IMG/VR virus record: IMGVR_UViG_3300021403_000011
Location: 1 to 59,588 of that record
Source: a virus
Lineage: Duplodnaviria > Caudoviricetes
DNA length: 59,588 bases
Direction: 5' to 3' (one strand)
The translations under genes and the position numbers were made by a program. Numbering within the stretch: position 1 is the first letter of the stretch; the number at the start of each line of letters is the position of its first letter. Below, piece after piece: positions 33,824 through 59,476 of this stretch. Below the pieces are notes generated by a model. It worked only from the letters and a program-made list of their open reading frames with translations, was not told the DNA's origin and searched no databases.

Positions 33824-34273
33824 GTGGCGAAGCCGGCTGCCGTCCGCGCCTGGGCGACCCGCATCAAGAAGCGCGCGGGCGCGTCCTCCGACGACCGGGT
33901 CGTCCGCCGCATCCAGCGCGAGGCCAAGCGCGCGGGCGCTACCCTGGCGCACGGCGGGAAGGGCGGCTTGGACCCTAGGCTGGCGCTCAAGGTGTTCCGG
34001 CGGGACCACTGGCGCTGCTCGAACCCGAAGTGCCCGACCCCCAAGAAGGACCTCGACCTGGACCACCAGAGCGGTCATCCGGAGGAGATCCTGCAGGACC
34101 CGAAGGCCCGGAAGGACCCCGGGGACCGGGCGGCCGCGCGCGCGGGGGATGACCCCAAGGACGACCGCTACTTACATACGTTGTGCGTCAAATGCCACGA
34201 CCGGGTCCACGACCGGGAACGGGCCATCGAGCAGGGGAAGCGTCCTAAACCGATGCGCGGCGCGGCCGGGTAA
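33824..34273 (+). CDS. HNH endonuclease
   Basis: VFRRD.WRC..C...LDLDH...LHTLC..CH..VH. Confidence 0.75.
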   Translation: MAKPAAVRAWATRIKKRAGASSDDRVVRRIQREAKRAGATLAHGGKGGLDPRLALKVFRRDHWRCSNPKCPTPKKDLDLDHQSGHPEEILQDPKARKDPGDRAAARAGDDPKDDRYLHTLCVKCHDRVHDRERAIEQGKRPKPMRGAAG

Positions 34274-34386
34274 TATCCCCCGTAGCGGCCAGGTATCGTA
34301 CCGCTGGGCAGGGCAAGGTTTGGATCGGATCGGCTTGGCGGGACATGGCGCGGGATTCCCCGTCCTCCAGTTGGAGGGGACGGGGA
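34271..34386 (+). repeat. TAATAT + (GGNNN) period-5 array + hairpin element (copy 1)
   Basis: 14 pentamers 34287-34356 (11 start GG); hairpin 34357-34386. Confidence 0.75.
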
Positions 34387-34398
34387 TCATTATTCCAA

Positions 34399-34427
34399 TG
34401 GACATCCGTTACGATATTTACTAGGAT
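34399..34427 (+). promoter_or_regulatory. sigma70-like promoter with conserved spacer (copy 2)
   Basis: TGGACA-TCCGTTACGATATTTAC-TAGGAT. Confidence 0.75.
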
Positions 34428-34469
34428 GGTCCTCAACGGCGATGAGCCGCAGAAACCGAGGAGGTTCCG

Positions 34470-34580
34470 ATGTCCCTGACCCTGCCGACCCTGATCCAAG
34501 TCGCCGCCCTGATGGGCGGCACCGGCGCCTGCAGCGCCAACGCGGTCCTGTTCCCACGCCGCCCGGTGGTGCGCTGGTGA
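34470..34580 (+). CDS. 36-aa peptide
   Basis: GAGGAGG SD; MSLTLPTLIQVAALMGGTGACSANAVLFPRRPVVRW; coupled to next gene. Confidence 0.5.
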   Translation: MSLTLPTLIQVAALMGGTGACSANAVLFPRRPVVRW

Positions 34581-35062
34581 CTAAGCTGGTCGTCATCCAG
34601 GACTCGTTCGTCCAGCCGGACCTGTGTGGTCCGTGCGGCGGGAAGTGCTGCCGCAACATGCCGGGGGCGGCGATGCCGTCCGACTTCGGCACGACCCCCG
34701 ATGAGATCCGCGCGCGCCTCATCGAGCGGCTCCGCACGGGACGCTGGGCGATCGACTGGTGGGAAGGGGACCCGCGACCGGACCAGGACGAGGTGAGTCG
34801 CGGGTATTTCGTGCGCCCCGCGACCAAGGACAGCCTCGGTGAGCTGCTCGACCCGTCTTGGGGCGGCGACTGCACGTTCCGCGGCGAGGGCGGATGTGAC
34901 ATCTTCGACGAGCGCCCGTCCGGATGCCGCGGACTGAAGCCGGCCCAGGACTCGAAGGGGTGCGAGGATGTCCACAGCGGGAAGCGAGACTGCGCGATCG
35001 CGTGGGTGCCGTACCGCCTGCTCATCGAGCAGGTCATCGCAGAACTTGGGGTGCGCCGGTGA
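34577..35062 (+). CDS. YkgJ-like Cys-cluster protein
   Basis: CGPCGGKCC...CTF..GC.I..RP..CR. Confidence 0.7.
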   Translation: MTKLVVIQDSFVQPDLCGPCGGKCCRNMPGAAMPSDFGTTPDEIRARLIERLRTGRWAIDWWEGDPRPDQDEVSRGYFVRPATKDSLGELLDPSWGGDCTFRGEGGCDIFDERPSGCRGLKPAQDSKGCEDVHSGKRDCAIAWVPYRLLIEQVIAELGVRR

Positions 35063-35385
35063 TCGCCCCGGGCACGGCCCCCGAGGCGGCGCGCGCGTTC
35101 CGCCGCGACGTCCTGGCGGTGGTGGTGTTCACCGTGGGGTGGATCGTCTTCGTGCTGCTGCTCGGGAGCTCATGCGGCGGCGTCCCGCTGGTCCCGCCCT
35201 GCGTCGAGCAGCTCGCGCCCGGCGACAACGCGGAGCTGAGCTCGCCGTGCCCCACCGCGCCCGGCTACAGCTTCGGCTGCGCCGGGTCGCCGAGCCAGAA
35301 GCCGCTGGTCGAGTGCGAGATCGACGATGGCCGGATCCAGCACTTCCGCACGGTCTGCGTCGACGCCTGCCCGGGGGCACGGTGA
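35059..35385 (+). CDS. Cys-rich membrane protein or lipoprotein
   Basis: TM segment then LGSSCGG. Confidence 0.55.
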   Translation: MIAPGTAPEAARAFRRDVLAVVVFTVGWIVFVLLLGSSCGGVPLVPPCVEQLAPGDNAELSSPCPTAPGYSFGCAGSPSQKPLVECEIDDGRIQHFRTVCVDACPGAR

Positions 35386-35618
35386 TGGCCGTCTACGCCG
35401 TCCGCCGCGCCGAGTTCGCGATCGAGGACCAGCAGCTGGTCGCGGTCGAGGTCTCGGACGGGAAGATCGAGCTGTACCAGGTCGACCCGGCCGACGGGAT
35501 CGAGATATGGGCCGGCTACGTCAGCAACCCGTCGATCCCCGCGATCGCGCGTATCGGCGCCGTCGAGGCGCTGGCGCGCGTGCCTCGACGCGAGCCGGAC
35601 CGGGTGCACAGGTGGTGA
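35385..35618 (+). CDS. hypothetical protein
   Basis: TGATG overlap. Confidence 0.5.
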   Translation: MAVYAVRRAEFAIEDQQLVAVEVSDGKIELYQVDPADGIEIWAGYVSNPSIPAIARIGAVEALARVPRREPDRVHRW

Positions 35619-35823
35619 CCGCCGGGGTTTGGGACGCCGGTGGCTGACCAGCGGCCCCCGAGCCCGTTCGAGCGCGACCTGGTCGAGCGGTTCCGGACGG
35701 AGCCCGGGTTCAGGAAGGCGTACGAGACCGCGCGCGGCGTGGCTGGCGCGCAACCGGAGGATCCCCGGCGCCCTGTGGCTGCCGGTCCGGTGCGAGCACA
35801 ACGGGGGAGGGAACAAAATAATC

Positions 35824-36078
35824 ATGGCGAGACTCAGCTGTCCTTGTGGCGTCGCGATCCGGCTCCAGCAGTCGCCGGACCCGAACGCGGCCGTCCTGGT
35901 GACCGAACGCGACGACGACGAGGTGGAGCGGCGCAACGTCGTCGAGTGCCCGGCGTGCCTATCACTGCTGGTCGAGACGCGTCCCTGCTCGAACGAATAT
36001 GTCCGGTTCTCCCCTGACAGCGATCATCCCCGCGGGATCGATCTCGGGCGCGGCCGCGGATTCTTCAGCCGGGGATAG
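35824..36078 (+). CDS. small Zn-ribbon protein
   Basis: CPCG...ECPAC. Confidence 0.5.
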   Translation: MARLSCPCGVAIRLQQSPDPNAAVLVTERDDDEVERRNVVECPACLSLLVETRPCSNEYVRFSPDSDHPRGIDLGRGRGFFSRG

Positions 36079-36080
36079 CC

Positions 36081-36278
36081 GTGCTGTTCATGGTCCACGC
36101 CCTCTGCTGCGACGGCAAGCGCCTGGCGCTCCAGGTGGCCCCCGACATGATGCTGTTGAAGGTCGGCCGGATCACCGAGTGGTGCCGCTGCCCCCAGGTC
36201 GTGTGGAAGCAGATCGAGAACGGCCCGCCGTTCCTGACCGCCCATGACGTCAAGGAATGGGTCCCAGGGCGCCGGTAA
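36081..36278 (+). CDS. hypothetical protein
   Basis: Stop forms TAATAT. Confidence 0.5.
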   Translation: MLFMVHALCCDGKRLALQVAPDMMLLKVGRITEWCRCPQVVWKQIENGPPFLTAHDVKEWVPGRR

Positions 36279-36288
36279 TATCCAAGAG

Positions 36289-37455
36289 ATGATCAATCTT
36301 CTGGCTACTGGCGAGATCGTCGACGTCTATGAGGACGGTCTGTTCTGCAAGCTTTGCAACACCTTCTTGGAATGTGCCGGGACTCACTTCTCGCGAAGAC
36401 ACAACTTGCCCGTACACCGGGGGATGTCGACGATCGATCGCCTACGCGTGTATGGACTCCCCCTGGGGGCTCGCCTTTCATCCGCGAGGCTCAGGAAACA
36501 GTTCCATGACCAGGTCGACTCATCATTCACCAATGGCGGGCACCGGTTTAAAAAAGGCGACAGGACCCCGGGGAGGGTGGCGCAGATCGGGATGAAGTCA
36601 TCGACCGCGATGCTCCAGGCCAAGCGAGCGGCAGCGGTAGCGGCGGGCCGATCCAAGCATGAGAAGGCTATCGACGTCAGGACTTGTGCGCAGTGCGGGC
36701 AGAGCTTCACACGGTGTCGGGGAGAAGCCACCAAGCTCTGTAGCAGGCCGTGTTGGGAAGCGTATATCTGCGCGAAAAACAAAAGCAGAACAGGCAGGAC
36801 GTACACCCCGGAGCAGATCGCCAAGTTTACGGCAGCGGCCATTTTGCGCGAGCAACGGCGACCACCGCGCCCCCAGAGACTTTGTTCAGTGCCGGAATGC
36901 GGGTTGCCGTACCTCACCAACGGCTACTGCAATGGACACGTGGGTTGGGCCCGGAAACACAACTGGGCGGTCCCCACCCACATGCTCCGAAGAAATCACC
37001 TTGGATACAAGGGCGTGACCGAGGACCGGCGTCGAGGGACGTACGGCTATCGGGTTCGTATCGACAAAATCGACCACCATGGTTCTGGGTTTAAGTCAGC
37101 CTCCGAAGCCAATGATGCATTGGTCTTGCTCAGGGGCCGCCTGAAGGATCATCATCCGGAAGATGAAGTCCAAGCAGACCCGCAACGCGAAGACCAGGCA
37201 GGTGACCCGCCTTTACGGCCAGCGCCGCAGGGCGACGGCCGCAGGGAAGACGGGAGAGATCAAGCGCAACGAGACGGCGATCGCCCAGATCGAGTCGATG
37301 CTGCTCTACGGCGTCTCTCGGGAATCGATGGCGCGGAAGCTGAAGCGCCCGATGCGAGTCATCGACCAGCACATCGACCGGGTCAGGAAGCGCTGGGAGA
37401 AGGAGGTCGCGAATGCGCGGCAGATCTTGCGACTCCGCAAGTTGGACAGAAGTGA
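36289..37455 (+). CDS. multi-Zn-finger DNA-binding protein (MucR/Ros-like N-terminus, homing-endonuclease-type modules)
   Basis: CKLC..THF.RRH...YGLP; CAQC..CS..C; CSVPEC..GYCNGH; GYKGV AP2-like; lower GC. Confidence 0.6.
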   Translation: MINLLATGEIVDVYEDGLFCKLCNTFLECAGTHFSRRHNLPVHRGMSTIDRLRVYGLPLGARLSSARLRKQFHDQVDSSFTNGGHRFKKGDRTPGRVAQIGMKSSTAMLQAKRAAAVAAGRSKHEKAIDVRTCAQCGQSFTRCRGEATKLCSRPCWEAYICAKNKSRTGRTYTPEQIAKFTAAAILREQRRPPRPQRLCSVPECGLPYLTNGYCNGHVGWARKHNWAVPTHMLRRNHLGYKGVTEDRRRGTYGYRVRIDKIDHHGSGFKSASEANDALVLLRGRLKDHHPEDEVQADPQREDQAGDPPLRPAPQGDGRREDGRDQAQRDGDRPDRVDAALRRLSGIDGAEAEAPDASHRPAHRPGQEALGEGGRECAADLATPQVGQK

Positions 37456-37558
37456 ATTGTCCTGGGCATCCCTGACCGCAGCCGAGCTCAAGCACATCAT
37501 CGACAACGACGGTCGCCTCCCGCCCGGCGTATCCGCAGAGCTGCTCCTCCGGAAGTAG
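37163..37558 (+). CDS. HTH protein, possible terminase small subunit
   Basis: G.S...MARKL..PMRVI..HI..VRKRW; precedes MuF. Confidence 0.5.
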   Translation: MKSKQTRNAKTRQVTRLYGQRRRATAAGKTGEIKRNETAIAQIESMLLYGVSRESMARKLKRPMRVIDQHIDRVRKRWEKEVANARQILRLRKLDRSELSWASLTAAELKHIIDNDGRLPPGVSAELLLRK

Positions 37559-37567
37559 ATTGGGGGC

Positions 37568-38491
37568 ATGGCCTCCCTGATCCGCGAGATCGTCGACCTG
37601 CACCGCCGGCAGCTGTTCGGCGTCATCGAAGTTCGCGGGGTGGGACGAATGCGACGTCTTTACGCCGACGCGCGCGGCGAGCTCGAGGCCAAGCTGCGGC
37701 GCCTGACGCGGACCGGGCGGGGGGACACATTCGGGGCCCAGCACCTGCGCATGGTGCTGACCCAGGTCAGCGACACGGTCGCGACCTTCGAGAAGGACCT
37801 GGTCCACCACATGGACCAGACCGGGCGCATGGCCGGGAACCTGGCGCCGAAGCACCTGGTGTCGATGGTCGGGAAAATGGAGGAGAAGTTCGGGCACATG
37901 ACCCCGGTCATCCAGGTGGCCCAGGCCGCGGTCGTGCGCGGGGCCTACCCCGAGGTCGCGCGCACGCTGCTGGACAAGTACCGCGAGAGCGCCGCGTTCT
38001 ACGGCCCGGAGACGATGCGCGCGATCCGGACGGGGCTCTCACACTCGATCATCCAGGAGGAGACGGTCGACGAGGCGGTGGGCCGCGTGGTGGAGACCGA
38101 CGGCCTGTTCGACGCCCAGCGCTGGCGGGCGGAGCGGATCGTGCGCACCGAGATGTCGTACTCGTACCACGTGACGAACCAGCGCGGCCTCGAGCAGCTG
38201 GCGCCGTCGGTCCCGAAGCTGATGAAGCGGCTGGTGACGACCCACGATGACCGGACCGGCGAGGACTCGATCGAGCTGGACGGGCAGACGGTTCCCGTCG
38301 ATCAACCGTTCGTATGGGTCGTCAAGGACGCGCGGGGGACGCCCACCGGGAAAGTCGTCAGGTACATGAGCCCGCCGAACAGGCCGAACGATCGAGAGAC
38401 GGTCATCCCGTGGGTCCAGGGCTGGGCCGAGCCGAGCCAGGTGACCGACCTCGGCGGCGTCCGGCCGTCGGTACCGTCGGACCTCGGGTAA
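37568..38491 (+). CDS. MuF / SPP1 gp7-like minor head protein
   Basis: RAERIVRTE, DDRT, LDGQ, PF, PPNRPNDR. Confidence 0.85.
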   Translation: MASLIREIVDLHRRQLFGVIEVRGVGRMRRLYADARGELEAKLRRLTRTGRGDTFGAQHLRMVLTQVSDTVATFEKDLVHHMDQTGRMAGNLAPKHLVSMVGKMEEKFGHMTPVIQVAQAAVVRGAYPEVARTLLDKYRESAAFYGPETMRAIRTGLSHSIIQEETVDEAVGRVVETDGLFDAQRWRAERIVRTEMSYSYHVTNQRGLEQLAPSVPKLMKRLVTTHDDRTGEDSIELDGQTVPVDQPFVWVVKDARGTPTGKVVRYMSPPNRPNDRETVIPWVQGWAEPSQVTDLGGVRPSVPSDLG

Positions 38492-38578
38492 TATCCCGGG
38501 TGTCATGGCAAGGCAGGGCGGGGTTAGGAGAGGTAAGGCAAGGCGGTGGGATCTCACTCCTCTAAAAGGAGCGAGATC
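38489..38578 (+). repeat. TAATAT + (GGNNN)8 array + hairpin element (copy 2)
   Basis: GGCAA GGCAG GGCGG GGTTA GGAGA GGTAA GGCAA GGCGG 38507-38546; hairpin 38550-38578. Confidence 0.75.
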
Positions 38579-38593
38579 AGTTTCCGTGCCCCG

Positions 38594-38623
38594 TTGACAG
38601 CGCGCGGGCGGCGGCCTCATCCT
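38594..38623 (+). promoter_or_regulatory. sigma70-like leaderless promoter
   Basis: TTGACA-18-CATCCT-7-ATG. Confidence 0.6.
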
Positions 38624-38630
38624 CGGGGTC

Positions 38631-39080
38631 ATGAACTCCGGCTATGACAAGGGCGACCTCAAGAGTTGGGCCGGCGCTGGTGACGGTGCGGCTGACCAGA
38701 GCCAGCAGAACGGTGCGGCCGACGACGGCACTGAAGGCCAGGACGGTGACCAGGACGAGGACGACGAGGGCGGCGGCCCGACCGACTGCTGCCAGATCCT
38801 GAAGGAGCTGAGCACCGACCTCGACGACAAGCTGAAGGCCCTCAAGGGCCTGACCCTCCCCGACGAGACCCCGAAGGCGTTCAAGAAGAAGTACGAGAAG
38901 TTCCAGGACGCCGTCGAGGAGCTCAAGACCGAGGCGGATGACCTCGCCGACGAGCACGAGGAGGAGCACGAGGAAGATGAGGAGTCCGACGAGGACGACG
39001 ACGAGTCGGACGACGAGGACGACGGCGGCAAGGACGACGACGGCGACGATGAGGCGGACGACGAGTCCGACGACGAGTAG
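38631..39080 (+). CDS. highly acidic protein
   Basis: Asp/Glu-rich tail, central helical hairpin. Confidence 0.7.
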   Translation: MNSGYDKGDLKSWAGAGDGAADQSQQNGAADDGTEGQDGDQDEDDEGGGPTDCCQILKELSTDLDDKLKALKGLTLPDETPKAFKKKYEKFQDAVEELKTEADDLADEHEEEHEEDEESDEDDDESDDEDDGGKDDDGDDEADDESDDE

Positions 39081-39256
39081 TGCCGCGCCCGAGTGCCATC
39101 CAGGACCCGCCCGAGCCGAGCATCCCGTTCGCTGACGAGGCGAACCCGGGGCTCGGCCGGCGCAGCGGACTGATCGAGCAGCAGCGCCGAGACAGCGGCG
39201 GGCTCGACGACAGCTCGCCCGAGAACCCGGTGCGGGACGACAACCCGATCAAGTAG
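39080..39256 (+). CDS. 58-aa acidic Pro-rich peptide 1
   Basis: Ends ENPVRDDNPIK; start overlaps upstream TAG. Confidence 0.55.
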   Translation: MPRPSAIQDPPEPSIPFADEANPGLGRRSGLIEQQRRDSGGLDDSSPENPVRDDNPIK

Positions 39257-39265
39257 GAGGCCGCC

Positions 39266-39421
39266 GTGCCCAGCCCACGAGAGATCGCGCTCCAGCAGAA
39301 CAACAAGGGGTCGTTCGAGCCCGAGCCGGACGACGACGAGCAGAACCCCAAGGCGAAGGAGCCGGACTACACCGGCAACCCGGGCGCGGCTCCCCCCGAA
39401 GAGAAGGCACCGTTCAAGTAG
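39266..39421 (+). CDS. 51-aa acidic peptide 2
   Basis: AGGAGG SD; QNNKGS..KEPD..APFK. Confidence 0.65.
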   Translation: MPSPREIALQQNNKGSFEPEPDDDEQNPKAKEPDYTGNPGAAPPEEKAPFK

Positions 39422-39433
39422 GAGGACCGTCCC

Positions 39434-39595
39434 ATGGCCGAGCAGAACGACAAGGGCAGCGACCCCAACGACGAGACCCTCCGCAAGTTCGGGGACCCGT
39501 CGAAGTCCGAGGACCACAAGGCGTTCGACCCGACGCAGATCCCGAAGGAGCCGGACCCGGTGCCCTTCAGGATCACCACCAGCGGCAACAAGTAG
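39434..39595 (+). CDS. 53-aa acidic peptide 3
   Basis: AGGAGG SD; QNDKGS..KEPDPVPF. Confidence 0.65.
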   Translation: MAEQNDKGSDPNDETLRKFGDPSKSEDHKAFDPTQIPKEPDPVPFRITTSGNK

Positions 39596-39632
39596 CCGCT
39601 CCCTCCCCAGTATCCACACGAAAGGCCGCACC

Positions 39633-39803
39633 ATGAGCACCGAAGCGAACTACGACCCGAACGAGGAGCACGAGAAGAAGGTCGGCCCCGACCACCCGAA
39701 CGTCTCGCCCGCCGACGCGTGGGGCGAGAAGCAGAACCCCGTCCGCGACACCGACGTGCCGTTCACGGGCGTCCGCGACGGCGGCACCAGCTCCGGCGGG
39801 TAA
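39633..39803 (+). CDS. 56-aa acidic peptide 4
   Basis: GAAAGG SD; QNPVRDTDVPF. Confidence 0.65.
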   Translation: MSTEANYDPNEEHEKKVGPDHPNVSPADAWGEKQNPVRDTDVPFTGVRDGGTSSGG

Positions 39804-39813
39804 CCGGACCCGC

Positions 39814-40206
39814 GTGGCGCAGTCGTCGCGGATCAAGGTCACCGGGATGGTCGCGGCGTCGCCCGCGACCTCCTCGGCGTACTCCTGCACGCTGCAGGCG
39901 CTGATGGACCTCAGCCTCTGCGCGGTCTACCAGGCCGCGAAGGGGGCCGAGCTGTCGATCGCGTCGACCGACCTCGCGCCCTACTCGGTCCCGTTCGAGA
40001 GCATCACGAAGGGCAGGTTCTTCTGCGCGCGCGTCCTCAGCGGCGCGTCGATGAAGCTGCTGATCACCACCGGGCTCGGCGTCGCGACGCTGCCGCTCTC
40101 GGACCGGTACATGATCCACAACCCGAGCGACGGGGACGAGATCACCGCGATCCAGATCGTCGGCACGGGAGACCTCGCGTACGTGCTCTCCGGCGACGTC
40201 CTGTGA
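39814..40206 (+). CDS. putative virion protein
   Basis: Head-module position, beta-rich. Confidence 0.6.
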   Translation: MAQSSRIKVTGMVAASPATSSAYSCTLQALMDLSLCAVYQAAKGAELSIASTDLAPYSVPFESITKGRFFCARVLSGASMKLLITTGLGVATLPLSDRYMIHNPSDGDEITAIQIVGTGDLAYVLSGDVL

Positions 40207-40287
40207 GCGGCCCCCTATCTTGACGGCGCTCCGCGCGCGGCGTTTCATCGTGATCGAGCGGAACGCAAACCCGACCAGGAGATCACC

Positions 40288-40689
40288 ATGAGCATCCGGA
40301 TTGAAGCGAACACCGGCCCCGAGAACCGCGCGATGGACATCTTCCGGGAGATCGGGCTCGGCGATCTCTTTGCCAAGCTGATCCTCGGTCTCACCGCGAC
40401 CGAGGCGGGCGCGACCATCACGTCGAACGTCTGCACGATGGCCAACCAGCCGGCCTACCTGTGGTCGGTGCAGGGCATCGGCGGCACCGCCGGCGAGCGG
40501 ACGATCCTGAAGGGTCCCATCACCGGCTCGCAGAAGATCACCCCGGCCCCCGGCCAGGTGGTCTGGGACGGCGGCAAGAAGCTGCTGTTCAACGTCGCGG
40601 ACGCGAACACCACGTGCGCGCTCCGCTACTCGACCGCCGCGGACACCACGCCCGGCGTCCTGGCTCGCGAGATCGGGCAGAACCCGTAA
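40288..40689 (+). CDS. putative head decoration/virion protein
   Basis: AGGAG SD; TTGACG at 40220. Confidence 0.6.
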   Translation: MSIRIEANTGPENRAMDIFREIGLGDLFAKLILGLTATEAGATITSNVCTMANQPAYLWSVQGIGGTAGERTILKGPITGSQKITPAPGQVVWDGGKKLLFNVADANTTCALRYSTAADTTPGVLAREIGQNP

Positions 40690-40778
40690 CGCCTGAACAT
40701 CCGCGCGCGCGGCGGGAATCCGCGCGCGCAGGCCGCCACCGGGGCCTTGTACTGGCGGGTACGAAAGGACCGTGACCC

Positions 40779-41597
40779 ATGGCCGACCCAGCAGCCCCCG
40801 CCCCGCAGAATCCTCCCGCCCCAGGCGCTCCCCCGGTAGCCCCAGCGGCCGCCCCACCGGCAGCGCCCGCTGCCCCCGCGCCGCGAGCGGCGGCCCCGCC
40901 GGCGCCCGCTCCCAAGAAGCCGAAGCCCGGGAACGTCGATGACATCCAGCTCGACAAGCACCCGAAGCTGCTCAAGCGGCTACGCCAGGAGGCCGCCCGC
41001 CAGGCCGCCCGCCTGGTCCAGGACAAGCTCGGCGTCTCCCTCGACGAGGCAGTGGAGCTGGTCAAGAAGGCCGGTACCGCGATCGACGCCGCGCCCGGCG
41101 GCGCTCCGCCGGCGGCGGCTCCCGCACCCGGGTCGGACCGCGAGAAGCGCTTGCTGGAGAGGCGCGTCGCCAAGCTGACCGCGCGCGTCGAGCAGTCGAA
41201 GCGCAAGGTGGTCTCGACCAAGCGCCGCGCGCGCGACGAGGTCGTCGAGCTCGAGCTGAGGCTGGAGACCCTGCGCGCCGGCATCAAGGACGACCAGGCG
41301 GACTTCGCGCTCTGGCAGTACCGCAAGGCAGTCGCTGCCGCGCCGGACGAGGCGGCGATCCCCGAGGCCTCCGCGTTCTTCGCCGGGATGAAGGCGTCGC
41401 ACCCGCAGATCTTCGCGGGCGCCGCGCCGTTGCCGCCGGTCACGCTGCGGCCGACGATGACGCCGCCCCTCAGCCTGCAGCCCGGCGAGGAGACGCCGGC
41501 GAACCGGAAGCCTGGCGACGAGCCGCCGCAGGTCGACGCGTTCAAGATGTCCGACGAGCAGTTCCGGAGGCACAAGGCGAGCTACGGCGTCCGCTAG
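40779..41597 (+). CDS. putative capsid scaffolding protein
   Basis: Pro/Ala-rich, coiled coil, directly before the capsid gene. Confidence 0.7.
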   Translation: MADPAAPAPQNPPAPGAPPVAPAAAPPAAPAAPAPRAAAPPAPAPKKPKPGNVDDIQLDKHPKLLKRLRQEAARQAARLVQDKLGVSLDEAVELVKKAGTAIDAAPGGAPPAAAPAPGSDREKRLLERRVAKLTARVEQSKRKVVSTKRRARDEVVELELRLETLRAGIKDDQADFALWQYRKAVAAAPDEAAIPEASAFFAGMKASHPQIFAGAAPLPPVTLRPTMTPPLSLQPGEETPANRKPGDEPPQVDAFKMSDEQFRRHKASYGVR

Positions 41598-41708
41598 GGG
41601 CCTTGACGGCGACGGCCGGAGTCCTGCACAGTTTTCGTCAGTACCAAGAACCCCATACCCGCCAAGAAGGAGAGCCGATCGATGAACTGACCCAACCACG
41701 AGGACCAC

Positions 41709-43094: not shown

Positions 43095-43112
43095 GCCGCC
43101 GAAGGGCTACTA

Positions 43113-43156: not shown

Positions 43157-43171
43157 CGTGCCCCGTGAGCG

Positions 43172-43543: not shown

Positions 43544-43560
43544 GCCGCCAAGGTAGTGGC

Positions 43561-48904: not shown

Positions 48905-48916
48905 AGGAGCTGACCG

Positions 48917-51678: not shown

Positions 51679-51679
51679 C

Positions 51680-52864
51680 ATGCCGTTCGACTCGCAGGAG
51701 CTCGGGCTCCAGATCAAGCTGCTCGAGGGGTCGATCTCGACGGAGACCCTGCAGACCGGCCAGCCTCCCGGGACGGTGCTGCTCGTCGGCCGCGCGGCGC
51801 ACTTCAAGGGCACCAAGTGGGGCCGCAAGATGCGGGTGCAGACCACCTTCAGCCCGGGCAACCCGAACGGGACCCAGCAGGTCATCGGCCGGACGCTGGA
51901 GCCGACGACGTTCACCGGCGAGTGGAACGACCGCTTCCTGGGCGACGGGCAGGCCCAGGCGCTGCGCGTCCTGTTCGAGCGCATCCACGACGCCGGCGTC
52001 TCGGTGCAGGTCACCTGGGGCGGCGCGCTCGGCGGCGAACCAGGCGCGCCGGTGCTGTCGGGTGAGGCCTACGTCCGGGTCGGGATCATGAGCGCATTCA
52101 CGCCGACGACCGACCGCGTGCAGGACGTCCCATGGGAGGCGACGTTCGACTGGCGCTCGGCGGGCGAACCGGCGGCGCCGCCGATCGCCGCCACCGGCAA
52201 GCTCAACCCGTCGGAGGGGTTCGGCGCGCTGACTGACCAACTCGACCTCGCGACCGCGACCTGGACCGCCGTCAGCCAGGGCCCGCAATTCGCCGCGGGG
52301 ATCTCCCAGGCCGCCGAGAACGCGATGGCCCAGGCGTTCGCCGCGGTGCAGTCGGCGAGCGACACGATCGCGAACGCGACCGCCCAGGTGACGTCGACGG
52401 TCGTCATCCCGACCCAGGCGGCGCTCCAGCTCATCGGCGCGGCGCAGACGGGCCTCCAGTCGATCGCGACCATGGAGTCGACGCTCCTCAACGTCAACCA
52501 GCTGCTGCTCGAGGTGCAGGACAGCGCGCTCGACCTGCTGCGCCTAAAGGACCAGGTCCTGACCACGCTGCAGGTCTGGCTGGGGGCGAAGGGCGCATGC
52601 GTCGACGCGAGCGAGGGGATGCAGCAGTACGTCGAGAGCGACGTCATCGCGGAGGTCCGCGCGCCGGCGGGAACGGACCTCCGCGACCTGGCCATTCGAT
52701 ACTACGGCGACGCCGACCTCTGGTTCGCGATCGCGCGCGCCAACGGGATCGACGGGTCCGCCGTGCCGTCGCCGCCCGGCGGCCCGAGCGACGACCCGGC
52801 GCGGCCGATCAGGATCCCACGCCCGCAGCCGGGGTCCTCGTCTGACATCCGGCAGCAGTGCTAG
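51680..52864 (+). CDS. tail tube initiator with C-terminal LysM/Tail X-like domain
   Basis: DLRDLAIRYYGDADLW.AIARAN. Confidence 0.75.
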   Translation: MPFDSQELGLQIKLLEGSISTETLQTGQPPGTVLLVGRAAHFKGTKWGRKMRVQTTFSPGNPNGTQQVIGRTLEPTTFTGEWNDRFLGDGQAQALRVLFERIHDAGVSVQVTWGGALGGEPGAPVLSGEAYVRVGIMSAFTPTTDRVQDVPWEATFDWRSAGEPAAPPIAATGKLNPSEGFGALTDQLDLATATWTAVSQGPQFAAGISQAAENAMAQAFAAVQSASDTIANATAQVTSTVVIPTQAALQLIGAAQTGLQSIATMESTLLNVNQLLLEVQDSALDLLRLKDQVLTTLQVWLGAKGACVDASEGMQQYVESDVIAEVRAPAGTDLRDLAIRYYGDADLWFAIARANGIDGSAVPSPPGGPSDDPARPIRIPRPQPGSSSDIRQQC

Positions 52865-53027
52865 CGCGTTTGTTCCAGAGCACGGCTTTCTGATCTCCGA
52901 ATGCATTGCCGCGGTAGTTCCTGGGGATAGCAGGCCCCTCGGCGCCGCATTCGAAGCACAGGATCTGATTCCCGTGTGAGCGACATAGGTTCGATGAACC
53001 GCAGAACGGGCAGGGGAGTAGGTCCAT
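52809..53027 (-). CDS. Lar-family restriction alleviation-like protein
   Basis: LLPCPFCG...C.ECGAEGP...A...WNKR; TAATAT 7 nt upstream. Confidence 0.7.
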   Translation of the reverse strand: MDLLPCPFCGSSNLCRSHGNQILCFECGAEGPAIPRNYRGNAFGDQKAVLWNKRASTAAGCQTRTPAAGVGS

Positions 53028-53065
53028 GCCTGGGATATTACCTGCCGGTCCGGTAGCATCGTCCC

Positions 53066-55279
53066 GTGGCCCTGACTGACCTCGCTGTCCTGGCCGGCGC
53101 GCAAGCCCCGGTCGGCGTCTCCCCGGCGCAGACGTCGAAGCCGATCGGCGGCAGCGTCAAGTACGTCTACCGCCCCGGGGTCATCGTCCGCCTGACCATC
53201 CGCCTGGATGACTGGTCGAACGCGGACGGTCCGCAGGCCCAGTCCGAGACCGTGCCCGCCAAGAACCCCGGCGCGCGCGTGATCCAGGAGGCCGCGTCCC
53301 TGCAGGCCCTCCAGGCGGTCCGGCGCGCGTCTGGTGAGTTCGACCCCGCGGCCGACGCCCAGGTCATCACCGCGCAGAAGAAGGTCGCGCGCGTGAAGGC
53401 CGGGAAGACCGCGGGCACGGGCGCGGCGGCGCCGGTTACGGCCACGCCGGACGACCGCACCATCCAGCTCGGCGTCGTGCCGCTCGATATCAGCGTCGAC
53501 CACAACGGCTTCCGGACCGCCGACAAGGTCTCGTTCGAAATCTCCCTGGGCGACCTGCCGCTGCCGCCCGATCTGATCCGGTCGCTGCTGGTCGAGGTCT
53601 TCGTCGGGACCGTCCCGGCGGACGACTTCGGCGACCCCGCGCGCTGGGTGCCGAACATCCTCGGCAACCCGCCCGACTTCCGGGGCTATGCCGAGCAGGA
53701 GAGCATCCAGGCGGACTACCAGACGCTGAAGGTCAGCGTTGACGCGCTCTCACTCGAGCAGCGCCTGATGGTGCTCAAGATCAACCCGTTCACCAAGGAC
53801 CGCGCGATCGCGAAGGGCGGCGAGCCGGTCACCGACTACATCCGCCGGTTGATCGCGACGATCCCCGAATTCAACGGCTCCCTGGGCGACGCCATCGGCG
53901 TCCGGATGTTCCCGAACGTCGCGCCCGACCAGGTTCCGCGCCTGGACGCGGCGCTGTTCAAGCGCAGCCTCCAGTCGGCGCAGTCGCGCGCGCAGGCCGG
54001 CGGCCCCGTGCAGGGCGGCCCACCGCCGGGGATCGACCCGTCCCAGGACCCGTCGGTCGGACAGCCCGGCGGTGTGGGGTTCCCGACGCCATCGCCGGCG
54101 GTCGCGGACGTATCGGTCTGGGACCTGGTCACGAGGGCGGCCGAGCTCGCCGGCGTCCTCCCGGTCTACGACCCGTCGATCGTCGCGCGCGACCTAGGCG
54201 GCAACGTCACTATGCTGGGCGCGAACAACATCCTGCTCGTGCCGCCGCAGACCATCAAGGAGACCCCCCAGGACGGCATCACGATCCCGGGTGGCCCGAC
54301 CGACGGCTTCTCGCGGGACCTGACCGTAGGCGGGACCAGCACCATCCACACCCAGGTCCGCTTCCTGGTGTGGGGCAACAACATCAAGTCGTACAAGATG
54401 ACCCGCAAGTACGGGCGCGAGAAGGCGCCGCGCGTGCGGGTGATGTGCCACAACCCGGACGCGCCGGCAGGCAAGCGCACCATGACGTCGGTGTTCCCCA
54501 CGACGGTCCGGGGAACGTCGGTATCGGCGATCGGGTCGGGGACCGGTAAGGGGCACGCGCCAATCGAGGAGGAGGTCGTCCGCGTGGTGCGCGAGATCCG
54601 GAGCCAGGCGCAGCTCGACGCGATCGCCGTCGCGCTCTACCACGCCATCGGCCGGCGCGAGGTGAGCTGCACCATCGAGACCGACGAGCTTGCGAGCTAC
54701 ATCGACCCGACGCGGCCGGAGACCCACAACGAGAACCCCGACCTCCTGCGGCTTCGCCCGGGGACCCCGTGCCGCGTGCTCGTCGCGCGCCGCGTGGCAG
54801 ACCCGGCGTCCGAGGGCTTCGAGGTAAACGGGCTCTCCGAGCTGATGGACCGGCGCTCGAACCCGGCGTTCCTGCGCAAGGCGCTGATGGACGGGACGAA
54901 CCTGATCGCGCCCGGCCTCGCGCGCGCCAAGCTCGAGGACGCATTGAACAAGCTGGAGAACGCCTTCCAGTCGTCCCGCCTCACCGACTGGTTCTACTGC
55001 CGGAACATGTCCTGGCACTGGTCGTCATCGGACGGCTGGTCGGCGACGATCGAGCTCGCGAACTACGTCGAGGCGCGGAACAGCCCGGCCAACCTGTCGC
55101 CGGCAGACGCCGCGCGCAACAACGCGATCAAGGCGGTGAAGCCGGTATCCAAGCCGGACCTGGCCGCGGCGGCGGCGCTGAGTGCCCAGAACGCGAACCT
55201 GGACGCCCTGATCGCGAAGGCGACGGCGACCCAGACGCCGACGGACCCCGCGCTGGCGGCGGCGCTGAGGGGTGAGTGA
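53066..55279 (+). CDS. baseplate hub protein
   Basis: 737 aa between tube initiator and spike. Confidence 0.6.
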   Translation: MALTDLAVLAGAQAPVGVSPAQTSKPIGGSVKYVYRPGVIVRLTIRLDDWSNADGPQAQSETVPAKNPGARVIQEAASLQALQAVRRASGEFDPAADAQVITAQKKVARVKAGKTAGTGAAAPVTATPDDRTIQLGVVPLDISVDHNGFRTADKVSFEISLGDLPLPPDLIRSLLVEVFVGTVPADDFGDPARWVPNILGNPPDFRGYAEQESIQADYQTLKVSVDALSLEQRLMVLKINPFTKDRAIAKGGEPVTDYIRRLIATIPEFNGSLGDAIGVRMFPNVAPDQVPRLDAALFKRSLQSAQSRAQAGGPVQGGPPPGIDPSQDPSVGQPGGVGFPTPSPAVADVSVWDLVTRAAELAGVLPVYDPSIVARDLGGNVTMLGANNILLVPPQTIKETPQDGITIPGGPTDGFSRDLTVGGTSTIHTQVRFLVWGNNIKSYKMTRKYGREKAPRVRVMCHNPDAPAGKRTMTSVFPTTVRGTSVSAIGSGTGKGHAPIEEEVVRVVREIRSQAQLDAIAVALYHAIGRREVSCTIETDELASYIDPTRPETHNENPDLLRLRPGTPCRVLVARRVADPASEGFEVNGLSELMDRRSNPAFLRKALMDGTNLIAPGLARAKLEDALNKLENAFQSSRLTDWFYCRNMSWHWSSSDGWSATIELANYVEARNSPANLSPADAARNNAIKAVKPVSKPDLAAAAALSAQNANLDALIAKATATQTPTDPALAAALRGE

Positions 55280-56013
55280 TGCCACCACGTAAGTCCAGGC
55301 TCGGGCCGATCGACTTCCGCCGGATGGCGCGCGGCATGGCGCAGCAGGGTAACGACCTCCGGCACTGGGTCTCCTACGCCACCGTCGCCACGGCGAACGG
55401 GGACGACGGGACCATGGACCCAACCGACCCGGACGCCATCCTGGTGACCCCGGCGGGCGTCGAGGTCGACGTCGTGCTCGAGCCGAGCGGCTACCCGTGC
55501 TCCGCGCGGTTCGGCGTCGCGGCCGGCAGCTGCAGCATCAACACCCCGATCCGCCCGGGTGACCAGGTGATCGTCGGGATCCCGGACGGCGACGTCTCCA
55601 TGGTCCCGCAGATCCTGTGCGTCATCACCGGCAGCTCGGACCCGATGCCGGTGGGGGATGACGGGCTTCCGATCTTCCGGAACGACCGGCTGATGATCTA
55701 CGCCGGCGCCGGCCTGCCCATCGAGATCCGTACGTCGAACGGGACGATGGTCCGGATCACCGACGACCTGGTGGAGGTCGGCGGGCAGGGCGTGACCGAG
55801 CAGGCGGTGCTGGGGACCACCCAGCGCCAGGCGGAGGCCACGCTCAACGCTACGACGCCGGAGGGGCTCCAGGGCATCTGGAACGCGGCGCAGGCCGCCT
55901 GCGTCGGTCCACTGGCGCCGCTCAAGCCGATGTTCGTCGCGGCGGCCCTGGCGATCGAGACGTACGAGGCCCAGGCGGACGGGTTCCTATCCGACGTCGT
56001 GAAGCTCCGGTAA
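55276..56013 (+). CDS. baseplate spike (gpV-like)
   Basis: P..PGDQV.V.IPDGD OB-fold signature. Confidence 0.7.
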   Translation: MMPPRKSRLGPIDFRRMARGMAQQGNDLRHWVSYATVATANGDDGTMDPTDPDAILVTPAGVEVDVVLEPSGYPCSARFGVAAGSCSINTPIRPGDQVIVGIPDGDVSMVPQILCVITGSSDPMPVGDDGLPIFRNDRLMIYAGAGLPIEIRTSNGTMVRITDDLVEVGGQGVTEQAVLGTTQRQAEATLNATTPEGLQGIWNAAQAACVGPLAPLKPMFVAAALAIETYEAQADGFLSDVVKLR

Positions 56014-56023
56014 CATCAGGGGC

Positions 56024-56860
56024 ATGGCAGGCGGATTCGGCGGCTCTGGCTTCGGTGGCTTCCCGCTCGGCGTCGGGGGGCCGCTCTCGGTCGTGCGCGC
56101 GCTGGCGGTCGCCGGCCAGGTGGTGCGCGTGGTGTTCAGCGAGGAACCGCTCCACCGCAGCGCGGCCGGCGCGATGGATGCCCTCAACCCGGCGAACTAC
56201 ATCTTCTCGGTCATCGGCGGCGCCGCGACGGCCCCGAGTCCCGTCGGCGTGAACCCAGCGATGGTCGTCGGCCCGACCTACGGCGTCCAGGGTAGCGCGC
56301 CCGAGCGCGGCTTCGACGTCGCGGTCGACCGCCAGCTCATCGTGGGGATCCACTACGTCGTCACGGTGCGCGACGTCGCCGCGCTGTCGGGGAGCGCCCT
56401 GGGCTCACCCGACTCGGGCGATTTCTTCGGCGTGACCCGGCTCGAAGAGACGCGCCTGCCAGTCCGTAACCAGGACCTGGTCGACTTCGCGTGCCCGCCG
56501 TCGCTCGGCCACTACGTCATCGACGACACGGGCGACATCGCCGTCGGGACCCCGGCGGACGGTACGGTCTGCCGGATCTTCCGCCGGCTCACCACCAAGA
56601 AGGACGCCTTCCGATGGCTGCGCGGCTACGGTGTCGGCATCGACCTCAAGGGCGTGGCCAGCACCGCTAGCCTGTCGGGCATGAAGAACGACGGCACGTC
56701 CCAGGTGAAGCTGGAGCCCGACGTCGCCGCCGCGTCGGTTGCAGTCACGACTCAGCCGGTCGGGATCGTCCTGGTACAGGTGCGCGCGCAGACCCGGCGC
56801 GGCGCCTTCGTCGACGTCGGCGCCAAGGTCTCCCCGACCGGCGTCTCCTTCTCCTCGTGA
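56024..56860 (+). CDS. baseplate wedge protein, gp25-like C-terminus
   Basis: RI.RRLTT...F.WL..YG.G. Confidence 0.6.
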   Translation: MAGGFGGSGFGGFPLGVGGPLSVVRALAVAGQVVRVVFSEEPLHRSAAGAMDALNPANYIFSVIGGAATAPSPVGVNPAMVVGPTYGVQGSAPERGFDVAVDRQLIVGIHYVVTVRDVAALSGSALGSPDSGDFFGVTRLEETRLPVRNQDLVDFACPPSLGHYVIDDTGDIAVGTPADGTVCRIFRRLTTKKDAFRWLRGYGVGIDLKGVASTASLSGMKNDGTSQVKLEPDVAAASVAVTTQPVGIVLVQVRAQTRRGAFVDVGAKVSPTGVSFSS

Positions 56861-56868
56861 GGTGACCC

Positions 56869-57987
56869 GTGGACCTACCCGACCGCTCAGACCTCGTCGT
56901 CGTCGCCCGCGAGTACATCCGCGGCCAGGCGATGCTGAACCCCGGCCTCCGCGTCAACCCCGCGTTGGTCGACGTCGACGGCAGCAACCTGAATCTCGAC
57001 GTCGGGTCCTCCGCGGTCATGGGCGAGGCCCTCACCGCCTCGTGGGCGGCGTGCGCGCGCGACCTCTTCCTGGGGACGGCGGAAGGCCCCGGGCTCGACC
57101 GGTACGTCTTCGAGCGCATGGGCGGGATGACCCGAAAATCATCGGCGCCGGCGTCGGTCGCGCTGACGCTGGCGCGGCCGACGTTCACTGCGGGCGGCGG
57201 GGTCGTCAATGCCAGCGCGCGCGTCACCACGCCGGGCGGGTCGATCTTCGCGCTCCAGACCGACGTCACGTTCGGCGCCACCGACCTCACCCAGCCCGCG
57301 GTGGGGATCGCCCAGGTCGTCGGCCCCACGCAGAACGTTCCGGTCAACACCCTGACCGCGTGGCTCGACCAGCCGTTCGACTCGACGATCACGGTCACGA
57401 ACCCCCAGGCCGCCGCGGGCGGTACGAACAATGAGAACGACGCGCAGCTGCGGGCGCGCGCGGCGGTCTTCTTCCTGACGATCCGGCGCGCCATCATCCA
57501 GGCGATCCAGTTCGCGGCGACCACCGTCCCCGGCGTCACCGTCGCGACGGCCTTCGAGATCCTCAACCCGGGCAGCGGCTACCCGGCCGCCGCCGTCGAG
57601 CTCATCATCGCGGACGACACCGGCGGCGCGTCGCCGACGATGATCCAGGGCGTGGTCGACGCGCTCCTGCAGTTCCGCGCGGCGGGGATCCCCGTCTTTG
57701 TATCCGGCGGCGACGTGGTGTTCGAGCCGGTCACCTACCACCTGTCCTTCGCGTCCGGCATCGACACCGTCGCGGCGACCGCCCAGGTGCGCGCCGTCGC
57801 GTCGGCGTTCTCCCAGTTCCTGCGCCCCGGGCAGGCCCTGCTGCGCTCCAACCTCCTCGCGGCGGCGAGCGCGGTCCCGGGCACGATCGTCGGCGACGAC
57901 GCGCTCCCGGTCCCCGTCGGCGACATCGTGCCCGTCACGAACAGCACGATCATCCGCGTCCGCCCGCAGGACGTGAGCTTCGTCTGA
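56869..57987 (+). CDS. baseplate J-like protein
   Basis: FL.TAEG..LD, VTNP..A.GG...E.D.QLR.R. Confidence 0.85.
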   Translation: MDLPDRSDLVVVAREYIRGQAMLNPGLRVNPALVDVDGSNLNLDVGSSAVMGEALTASWAACARDLFLGTAEGPGLDRYVFERMGGMTRKSSAPASVALTLARPTFTAGGGVVNASARVTTPGGSIFALQTDVTFGATDLTQPAVGIAQVVGPTQNVPVNTLTAWLDQPFDSTITVTNPQAAAGGTNNENDAQLRARAAVFFLTIRRAIIQAIQFAATTVPGVTVATAFEILNPGSGYPAAAVELIIADDTGGASPTMIQGVVDALLQFRAAGIPVFVSGGDVVFEPVTYHLSFASGIDTVAATAQVRAVASAFSQFLRPGQALLRSNLLAAASAVPGTIVGDDALPVPVGDIVPVTNSTIIRVRPQDVSFV

Positions 57988-59375
57988 TGGTCGACCCGGA
58001 GACGCCCGACACGCTGCTGGCCCTGCTGCAGCGGACCAGCGACGGCCAGGGCTGGCTGCAGCCCCAGCTCGACGACCCGGACGCGGCGACGCTGCTGATG
58101 GCGCGGGTCGCGATCTTCGCGCGGCTCGGCGTCGCCGCGATCCACAACGCCGCGCAGGCGACGATCTCCGGCGCGTCGGGCGGCAGCCCGGGGACGAGCG
58201 CGGTCACGATCTCGCGCGCGTCGGGGACGACCACGGGCACGATCCCCAAGGGGTTCGCGTTCGTCGACCCGCGCGGCGTGCGCGCCGTCCTGCAGGTCGA
58301 CGTCCCAGTCACGACCCAGACGGTGCTGGTCCTACCGGTCCAGACGCTGCGCCAGACGGAGCTCGTCAACACCGAGGCCGACCCGGAGTTCGAGGTCGAC
58401 CCGCAGAGCCCCGTCGTACCAGCGAGCTCGGGCATCCTGATCGCGCCCCCGGGGACCGGCGGCGTCGGCGCGAGCACGTTCCAGGCGGTCGGCCCGTCGA
58501 CGAAGATCGACGGCGGCGCGGCTGACTACCTGTCAGTCCAGGGCGAGGAGCGCGGGATCTTCCGCCAGCCCGGCGAGACGACCGCGGCCTACCGCCAGCG
58601 CGTGCTCAACATCCCCGACGCGGTCAGCCCGATCGCGATCGCCGACGTCGTGCAGGCGGCGGCGCAGCAGCCGGGGATCCCGCCGCTGCTCACTCTCGAG
58701 CCGTTCGAGGACGGGGCGACCCCGGCGCTGAAGGCGCTCCATGGGCTGGGGAGCTTCTCGGGGTTCGCGTGGGACGTGGACTTCTGGGACGACCCGCTCA
58801 GCGGGTTCACGCTCCTGGACCGGCGCATGGGGCGCGCGTACTTCCTCATCCAGGCCCAGGACTACGTCGTCGACACGCAAAACTTCGGCGTGTTCTGGGA
58901 CGACATGTTCTTCGACGACGGCGTCCTGGGGTTCCCCGCGGACGTCGACCTGTTCCCACCGGCGCAGTCCGCCGCGCTCCTGGCGATCGCTGCCAGCGTC
59001 GACCCCAAGCGCGCCGGCGGCGTGCAGTTCGACATCCAGCTCAAGAGCGGCGATCTGCTCGAGGGGCGCGGTACGCGCAGCGCCAACAGCTTCGGTGAGG
59101 TCGTCACGCTGACGCCCGCGGCGGGCGCCATCTGGTACTTGTCGCAGGTCCTCGCCGGCCACGACTCGCCGACGCCGAGCACGTCGATCGCCCACCACCT
59201 GACCTTCGACCTCGAGGACGGCTCCAGCTTCACCACCGCCGACTTCTCGCAGACCTGGACGGAGATCATCCCCCCGCCCGGCGCGCGTGTTACCGCGATC
59301 CATGGATTCTTACGGTCAGACGGAACGATCGTGGCCGATCTGGTCATCTACGTCAGAGCCGTTGCCGTGGGTTAA
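57987..59375 (+). CDS. baseplate wedge protein
   Basis: RGI.R.PGET..AYR.R; follows J-like gene. Confidence 0.65.
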   Translation: MVDPETPDTLLALLQRTSDGQGWLQPQLDDPDAATLLMARVAIFARLGVAAIHNAAQATISGASGGSPGTSAVTISRASGTTTGTIPKGFAFVDPRGVRAVLQVDVPVTTQTVLVLPVQTLRQTELVNTEADPEFEVDPQSPVVPASSGILIAPPGTGGVGASTFQAVGPSTKIDGGAADYLSVQGEERGIFRQPGETTAAYRQRVLNIPDAVSPIAIADVVQAAAQQPGIPPLLTLEPFEDGATPALKALHGLGSFSGFAWDVDFWDDPLSGFTLLDRRMGRAYFLIQAQDYVVDTQNFGVFWDDMFFDDGVLGFPADVDLFPPAQSAALLAIAASVDPKRAGGVQFDIQLKSGDLLEGRGTRSANSFGEVVTLTPAAGAIWYLSQVLAGHDSPTPSTSIAHHLTFDLEDGSSFTTADFSQTWTEIIPPPGARVTAIHGFLRSDGTIVADLVIYVRAVAVG

Positions 59376-59476
59376 TATCCAGCCTGCGGGGGGTCGCCAG
59401 GCGCGGTTTTGCCTGGCAAGGCTCGGCGAGGCATGGCAGGGAGGGGCTTCAACTTGTTTCTAAAGTTGAAGCCCCT
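59373..59476 (+). repeat. TAATAT + (GGNNN) array + 14-bp hairpin element (copy 3)
   Basis: GGCGC GGTTT TGCCT GGCAA GGCTC GGCGA GGCAT GGCAG GGAGG 59400-59444; stem 59442-59476. Confidence 0.75.

Follow-up and report, generated by a model that had tools for sequence, protein, structure and literature searches.

The question raised by this locus is what three non-coding elements are doing in the genome of an uncultivated phage. The window analysed in this work is the whole 59,588-bp stretch of the IMG/VR record IMGVR_UViG_3300021403_000011 (Duplodnaviria; Caudoviricetes). It has a G+C content of 69% and an estimated completeness of 68%, and nearly all of its genes lie on the plus strand. Each element, referred to here as a unit, consists of a TAATAT box, an array of pentamers that begin with GG, and a predicted hairpin. 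We consider it highly likely that the three units are genes for vrRNA-type guide RNAs of the kind used by VIPR, a system that was described in preprints in 2026. The parts of the three units are listed below.

34269..34278 (+): GGTAATATCC motif with the -10-like box of unit 1; its TAA (34271-34273) closes the HNH endonuclease gene 33824-34273
34284..34306 (+): predicted 5' leader of unit 1, starting at the A that lies 7 nt past TAATAT, as judged from eight sites where an ATG holds this place
34307..34356 (+): array 1, 10 pentamers: GGCAG GGCAA GGTTT GGATC GGATC GGCTT GGCGG GACAT GGCGC GGGAT
34357..34386 (+): tail hairpin 1, predicted, 11 pairs, followed by TCATTATTCC; also called terminator-like
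38487..38496 (+): GGTAATATCC motif of unit 2; its TAA closes the head-morphogenesis gene 37568-38491
38507..38546 (+): array 2, 8 pentamers: GGCAA GGCAG GGCGG GGTTA GGAGA GGTAA GGCAA GGCGG
38550..38578 (+): tail hairpin 2, predicted, GATCTCACTCCT / AGGAGCGAGATC, followed by AGTTTCC
59371..59380 (+): GTTAATATCC, the motif of unit 3 with one mismatch; its TAA closes the tail gene 57987-59375
59400..59449 (+): array 3, 10 pentamers: GGCGC GGTTT TGCCT GGCAA GGCTC GGCGA GGCAT GGCAG GGAGG GGCTT
59443..59475 (+): tail hairpin 3, predicted (z -6.1), GGGGCTTCAACTT / AAGTTGAAGCCCC, followed by TATCCTTTG

The exact pattern (GGNNN)x6+GG occurs in the window only at 34307, 38507/38512, and 59415, always on the plus strand, and has 0 occurrences in 100 dinucleotide-preserving shuffles. 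The three arrays have 10, 8, and 10 units in register. GG stands at the start of 26 of the 28 pentamers and C or T at position 3 of 23 pentamers. The last two positions are occupied by 10 different dinucleotides. The three arrays were aligned in phase by MAFFT, and the only invariant columns are scaffold G's and C's. An additional in-phase GGGGT lies at 59390, ahead of array 3. The TAA of each TAATAT box is the in-frame stop of the upstream frame (150, 310, and 646 codons, respectively), and no open reading frame (ORF) follows these stops except for a 30-codon ATG frame at 38505. A reading of this DNA made without database searches (the sequence-only reading) had described three phased GG arrays with hairpins that start at TAA stops and open no convincing ORF. 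This description stands, since the arrays are absent from the shuffles and hairpins are predicted at all three sites.

A looser scan that accepted 7 of 8 pentamers was run over both strands of the window and of four related genomes (about 390 kb). It returned the three window arrays, one site each in the relatives G002 and G003, and nothing else. The two sites in the relatives are purine-rich period-5 GG runs (G002 36854-36908, plus strand; G003 80895-80949, minus strand). They were rejected as homologous elements because both are antisense to homologous ORFs and follow immediately on the part for a conserved N-terminal domain (64% identity over 132 aa), where the coding strand specifies the proline-rich linker of a two-domain protein. 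These runs are coding look-alikes of vrRNA arrays and a source of false positives.

In the published system, Vipr is a RAMP relative of about 20 kDa that binds vrRNAs of about 100 nt. A vrRNA is described as 9-16 YNNGG repeats, in which GGY is conserved and NN is hypervariable, with a 3' tail behind them. It is through the NN pairs that double-stranded DNA is read, with one base skipped per pair (10.64898/2026.04.26.720920). Vipr protomers are reported to polymerise along the vrRNA, one per GGY/NN unit (10.64898/2026.04.26.720927). The threshold of the published array callers is at least four tandem GG[C/T]NN units. Natural targets are described as usually lying in rival mobile elements, with the skipped base at the wobble position.

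The window arrays and the type II vrRNAs of phiSUSP1 both consist of tandem 5-nt units with conserved GGY and variable NN, and both are carried by a phage. The phiSUSP1 vrRNAs have 9-16 units compared to 8-10 in the window. Both have a 3' tail after the repeats and a length of about 100 nt, where the structure of the tail and the length are predictions for the window. Neither exhibits a self-match under the 1-nt skip, and the discovery preprint likewise reports none for the VIPR systems that it treats (10.64898/2026.04.26.720920). The differences concern arrangement. The vrRNAs of phiSUSP1 flank vipr, whereas no vipr or vap gene was found in the window, where the units are spread over 25 kb in three slots and each has its own promoter box and terminator. 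The tail of phiSUSP1 is an invariant pseudoknot, whereas the tails of the window are plain hairpins that differ from each other. The window belongs to a soil phage of 69% G+C that is unrelated to Ounavirinae.

The sequence-only reading had suggested RNAs of about 80-110 nt that are read at a 5-nt period by a protein oligomer. This suggestion comes close to the published vrRNA and Vipr, while the TRAP-like ring and the role as sponges that it offered are unsupported. Its proposal of an undescribed system does not hold, since VIPR was published in preprints in 2026 and such arrays are common in IMG/VR (at least 120 stretches). The known family that it could not name was found through the VIPR literature and not through Rfam. 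The whole window has 0 Rfam matches at the gathering threshold, and the region 34200-38700 (units 1 and 2) has 0 matches at E values up to 1. BjrC68 and a snoRNA were considered for unit 3 and rejected as sub-threshold, hairpin-based hits (BjrC68 scored 23.5 bits against a threshold of 39).

How the units may be transcribed is indicated by the TAATAT box, which is part of the 10-bp motif GGTAATATCC. With at most one mismatch, this motif has 13 occurrences in the window compared to 0.44 expected. The box is thus a genome-wide motif and not a part of a three-copy element, as had been proposed. Twelve occurrences lie in a plausible context. The thirteenth (50289, minus strand, GGTGATATCC) lies within coding sequence and resembles chance. 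Besides the three units, the sites in plausible context are listed below.

1842, 10593, 12797, 19150, 24683, 25308, 26623, 36274: GGTAATATCC sites
53033 (-): GGTAATATCC site

An ATG lies exactly 7-8 nt past TAATAT at eight sites, where it opens ORFs of 72-388 aa, and 11 nt past the box at a ninth. The TAA of the motif doubles as the stop of the upstream gene at eight sites. The motif stands ahead of accessory genes, and three of the genes that it precedes (12812, 25324, and 36289) are HNH endonucleases or look-alikes. The homologous genes of the relatives start with a -35 TGACA, a -10 TANNNT, 7 nt, and ATG. The excess of occurrences, the spacing to ATG, and this arrangement in the relatives indicate that GGTAATATCC is most likely a -10-type promoter for leaderless transcripts. 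When the same spacing is applied to the units, the predicted starts are about 34284, 38502, and 59386, and the predicted lengths to the hairpins are about 112, 83, and 93 nt. The leader of unit 1 has a small stem (AGCGG/CCGCT) in its predicted fold. A strong hairpin is predicted after each array, and the three hairpin sequences differ, as do those of a VIPR-positive phage (L066) that is compared below. The features that lie past the hairpins are listed below.

34399..34427 (+): next promoter after unit 1, TGGACA-17-TAGGAT, within a repeated 25-bp box
38594..38633 (+): promoter after unit 2, TTGACA-18-CATCCT, 7 nt, then ATG at 38631; leaderless-type, of the scaffold/capsid operon
59485-59509 (+): further hairpin past tail 3, predicted
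59531..59559 (+): promoter after unit 3, TGGACA-17-TAACGT, third copy of the box, 29 bp from the window end

These promoters (TGGACA at 34399 and 59531; TTGACA at 38594) bear out the earlier placement of the elements at boundaries of transcription units, with a promoter past each hairpin. The place, the spacing, and the leaderless ATG of the TTGACA at 38594 are kept in the relatives G001 and G002. The 25-bp promoter box TGGACAnnCGTTACGATATTTACTA has three copies (15765-15795, 34399-34427, and 59531-59559). Copies one and two lead into leaders that resemble each other and end in GAGGAGGTTCC(C)GATG. Copy three lies close to the end of the contig, so that the repeat may have broken the assembly.

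Under the vrRNA reading, host RNA polymerase would start about 7 nt past the TAATAT box, transcribe the 8-10 GGY/NN pentamers, and stop at the hairpin, which would give RNAs of about 83-112 nt. By analogy with the published system, Vipr protomers would then bind one per pentamer and hold GGY. The presented NN pairs, again by analogy, would read double-stranded DNA, skipping one base for each pair, and the target would be silenced.

The occurrence of such arrays among viruses was surveyed in IMG/VR with the pattern GGCNN(GGNNN)x6GGC, which returned at least 120 stretches. Among the listed matches, the contigs have 39-71% G+C and many have several long arrays. The ORFs adjoining the arrays form one family of about 200 aa, with 74 proteins from 74 listed loci. 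Of these clustered ORFs, 73 lie on the strand of the nearest array. A profile of the 74 proteins has matches in 86 of the 120 listed loci. All eight family members that were tested match phrog_4652 (E 1e-07 to 2e-57), and none of the eight has a Pfam match. In phiSUSP1, the model phage of the preprint, phrog_4652 is found at 28489-29064 on the minus strand (E 2e-98). The arrays of phiSUSP1 share this strand and flank the gene, at 29165-29231 just upstream and at 27619-27966 downstream, which agrees with the preprint. Judged by these profile matches, phrog_4652 is the Vipr family. A second family adjoining the arrays, phrog_15946, is found in 18 listed loci and is probably one of the VIPR accessory proteins.

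A stand-alone array unit is not unusual. Eleven of the 120 listed loci lack a Vipr match although their array is flanked by 3 kb or more on either side, and several of these solitary arrays are preceded at 5-10 nt by an AT-rich box and followed by a hairpin. At least one of the eleven (L095) looks like plain G-rich sequence. No second effector family is shared among the listed loci that lack Vipr, and none of their proteins matches the window proteins. A further IMG/VR scan for the motif together with an array returned 14 stretches, none of which is like the window.

Several loci met in the survey have features of their own. The Gordonia phages Trine (L191, MH271318; 3155-3400) and MakoManhole (L192, PQ184807; 2919-3050) have a phrog_4652 Vipr and GGC arrays. 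Their arrays are separated by elements with a T-arm-like motif, GGTTCGACTCC, and ARAGORN reported one odd tRNA-like gene at L191:3310-3378. Tails of a tRNA-like kind have no mention in the main text of the discovery preprint (10.64898/2026.04.26.720920). The annotated coding sequence of Trine gene 40 overlies the arrays. An IMG/VR contig of 31% G+C (L048) has long (GGTNA)n arrays on the minus strand at about 10673-10850 that are split by a unit of TAATATCC and a hairpin. These arrays may represent a further VIPR type, in a phage of low G+C, and when taken as (U/G/A)AG-GU they also resemble TRAP sites.

Among the known systems, the solo vrRNAs lack vipr and vap in the same element, and in the window neither gene was found in the 59.6 kb covered. 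Solo vrRNAs have been reported on F5 satellites and on 346 VIPR-null, SUSP1-like phages of enterobacteria, and they are thought to use or redirect the Vipr of another element (10.64898/2026.10.15.759431). As described there, published solo vrRNAs keep the tail of the Vipr that they exploit and sit at a vipr-vap deletion, whereas the window has no trace of a deleted locus. Targets have been identified for the published solo vrRNAs (vipr, satellites, and REP elements), whereas none was found for the window. The published cases belong to VIPR-null elements, whereas the absence of vipr from the incomplete window genome covers 59.6 kb.

The uncultivated phage L066 (53% G+C) resembles the window in the architecture of its three units, which consist of a sigma-70-type promoter (TTGACA-17-TATACT), 8-9 nt, an array, and terminator hairpins that differ. 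It is unlike the window in that its arrays enclose a Vipr gene of the phrog_4652 type (E 4.5e-47 with the 74-sequence profile). One of its tails, GGGTATCTCAC...GTGAGATAC AATTATT, resembles tails 1 and 2 of the window by eye (GGGATCTCAC...GAGATC; ...GGGGATC ATTATT).

Two more distant systems were also compared. The Class 1 CRISPR crRNA with its Cas7 backbone is, like a vrRNA, a guide bound by a RAMP oligomer at a fixed period. The period is 6 with one spacer in Class 1 CRISPR, whereas it is 5 in the vrRNA, with the specificity spread over NN pairs within the repeats. The window has no CRISPR array and no cas genes. TRAP reads 9-11 (G/U)AG triplets that lie 2-3 nt apart and regulates trp genes in Firmicutes. 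The TRAP leader RNA of Bacillus and the window arrays share a period of about 5 nt that is suited to a protein oligomer. The window arrays conserve GGY and not (G/U)AG, and the triplets that end at the first G are mixed (AAG, AGG, GGG, TAG, TCG, and TTG, among others). No TRAP gene turned up in the window, where no search aimed at one was made.

Several points weigh against the vrRNA reading. Array 2 has 8 units, one short of the quoted 9-16, and position 3 is A or G in 5 of the 28 units. The three tails are unlike in sequence, whereas tails are described as invariant within the SUSP1 clade (10.64898/2026.04.26.720920). The unit promoter and both the start and the end of the transcript are features that we infer, and the only sequencing run in which this DNA was located is a DNA run. 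No convincing target was found for any guide in exact scans of large collections, and the units are not carried by any close relative.

The search for a Vipr in the window is also negative. It was sequence-based and covers the 68% of the genome that the window represents. phrog_4652 has 0 candidates in the window at E values up to 10, and the 74-sequence Vipr profile has no match in the six-frame translation at the same limit. The 51 predicted window proteins of 100-330 aa reach at most 2% probability in hhalign. A regular expression for the N-terminal signature has 0 matches in the window; it catches just 45 of the 74 known members. The vap search with a profile of 18 phrog_15946-type proteins (E up to 10) has no window match; five other kinds of vap were not searched. 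phrog_4652 is also absent from the relatives G001-G004 and from a Myxococcales bin. Since no vipr is found in this 68% or in the four relatives, the units would be solo vrRNAs, or else they would serve a vipr gene located in the third of the genome that is missing. Within the vrRNA reading, solo vrRNAs that use or misdirect the Vipr of another element in the same cell have a little better than an even chance. Guides for a vipr gene in the missing third are a rather unlikely reading by themselves, and the solo guides are somewhat more likely of the two.

Targets were sought as sites where at least 80% of the NN positions match under the 1-nt skip, and as exact matches only in the large collections. 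The best scores in the window are 14/20, 13/16, and 14/20 or lower, and are listed as no site at 80%. The relatives have no site at or above 80% under the 1-nt skip except for one of 13/16 in G001. The exact scan with guide 1 returned 0 matches in IMG/VR and three unrelated bacterial sites, none in the wobble register. Guide 2, which was extended to 18 bases, has one exact match, with no open reading frame across it. Guide 3 has one event in three near-identical contigs of single-stranded RNA (ssRNA) phages and 0 matches in the genome collection. In this event a 29-nt stretch of a maturation gene matches guide 3 at 20/20 informative bases in the wobble register. It was treated as chance, being a single event in an RNA genome of 49% G+C after five collection scans. 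The contigs concerned (L193-L195, IMG/VR, 1.2-3.7 kb) are ssRNA-phage genomes or fragments, and L194 has maturation, coat, and replicase genes. Near-matches in the Myxococcales bin (1, 0, and 2 compared to 0 for reversed patterns) were treated as chance level. The other loci examined have nothing above shuffled guides, apart from the loci fetched by the exact scans.

Protein identities of the window phage to named phages are 31% for the capsid (Streptomyces phage Kromp) and about 27% for the portal (Ralstonia and Komagataeibacter phages), and megablast of the window has no match among GenBank phages. Eight IMG/VR loci encode capsids that are 44-69% identical to that of the window, and the records of three of them are complete genomes of 87-93 kb that are collinear with the window. 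The relatives G001-G004 are 91-100% complete. No TAATAT or array was found within 10 kb of the capsid gene in the eight related loci, which span 5-21 kb around that gene. At the unit positions the relatives have other small genes or nothing; the units therefore behave as inserted cassettes. In the genomes compared here, the three units are specific to the window phage within its group.

The 3.7-kb island between units 1 and 2 is not in the relative G001. It contains two HNH endonucleases, a 161-aa CxxCxxCC-type protein, and short ORFs (<90 aa). At least five HNH-type endonuclease genes are found within 60 kb.

10064-10597: HNH-type endonuclease gene
12812-13273: HNH-type endonuclease gene
25324-25872: HNH-type endonuclease gene
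33824-34273: HNH-type endonuclease gene
36289-37455: HNH-type endonuclease gene

Several of these genes adjoin the GGTAATATCC motif, which suggests that they are mobile cassettes. The search for tRNA and tmRNA genes in the window returned none. The host is probably a high-G+C soil bacterium. A phage-sized contig of 88 kb that is binned with a Myxococcales genome (L200) has a capsid 67% identical to that of the window; it may point to the phylum of the host, or it may be an artefact of binning.

The lack of a recognisable effector may be explained differently, by a complete VIPR system whose effector lies in the window and is too diverged to be found, as a new Vipr type or a reader that is not a RAMP. 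The preprint describes seven VIPR types and RAMPs that share little sequence similarity and were found via structure search (10.64898/2026.04.26.720920). Many window proteins have no family match, and the phage-specific 3.7-kb island between units 1 and 2 would offer a place for such a gene. However, the island has nothing near 200 aa of an unknown kind. The published Viprs were all gathered by PSI-BLAST from a single seed, as the preprint reports (10.64898/2026.04.26.720920), and are therefore linked by sequence, yet three sequence methods were negative in the window. We regard a diverged effector as very unlikely.

The arrays may also be independent of VIPR and act as two-tier G-quadruplexes, as protective or terminating 3' structures, as a protein sponge, or as half-turn DNA sites. 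Two-tetrad quadruplexes are in principle possible for GG tracts with 3-nt loops, all three arrays lie at operon boundaries just ahead of terminator-like hairpins, and the sequence searches found no Vipr in the window. A quadruplex or a DNA site leaves the preference for C or T at position 3 (23/28) unexplained, though, and the GGY signature recurs beside Vipr genes in 86 of the 120 listed loci. All the arrays lie on the transcribed strand after a promoter-like box, and the (G/U)AG triplets of the TRAP type are not conserved. The TRAP, sponge, G-quadruplex, insulator, and DNA-site alternatives that had been raised gain no support from the analyses run, and independence of VIPR is improbable in our view. 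It could further be argued that the units are inert remnants or chance low-complexity sequence. No relative carries them and purifying selection is therefore not demonstrable, G-rich period-5 runs arise as coding by-products in G002 and G003, and about ten distinct exact sites are found in a 6.2-Mb GC-rich genome. Against this stand the absence from 100 shuffles and the three intact units within 59.6 kb, which are alike in promoter box, strand, phase-perfect array, and hairpin. None of the three is coding, which sets them apart from the cases in G002 and G003. We hold inert or chance sequence to be extremely unlikely, and the vrRNA reading is retained.

The sequence features of the units exceed chance by far. 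The class of the units is one already on record, and public viral contigs have many of its arrays. Particular to this case are the lineage, the dispersal of the units as three autonomous cassettes, the plain hairpin tails that differ from each other, and the lack of a recognisable effector. RNA-guided DNA recognition of the VIPR kind has been described only recently, and the known cases come mainly from enterobacterial and Pseudomonas phages. The present work adds phase-perfect vrRNA-type genes in an unrelated soil phage of 69% G+C, in which single promoter-array-terminator cassettes are scattered over variable slots of the structural module with no effector gene in sight. For annotation, phrog_4652 marks Vipr, and the period-5 scan has very few false positives, with two coding look-alikes among about 390 kb scanned on both strands. 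ORFs are annotated over arrays in some deposited phage records, as in Trine gene 40.

A possible scenario, which we put forward tentatively, is that the lineage has no Vipr of its own and that the window phage has acquired three independent solo cassettes. These would share a promoter box with homing-endonuclease and other accessory genes, and would hijack or misdirect a Vipr that belongs to a rival element (phage, prophage, or satellite) in a soil host of high G+C. If the units are solo guides, they point to a rival Vipr-bearing element in the same host and to a traffic of guide cassettes between phages. If true, the 'guns for hire' use of VIPR would extend beyond enterobacteria and would include guides with plain terminator-hairpin tails.

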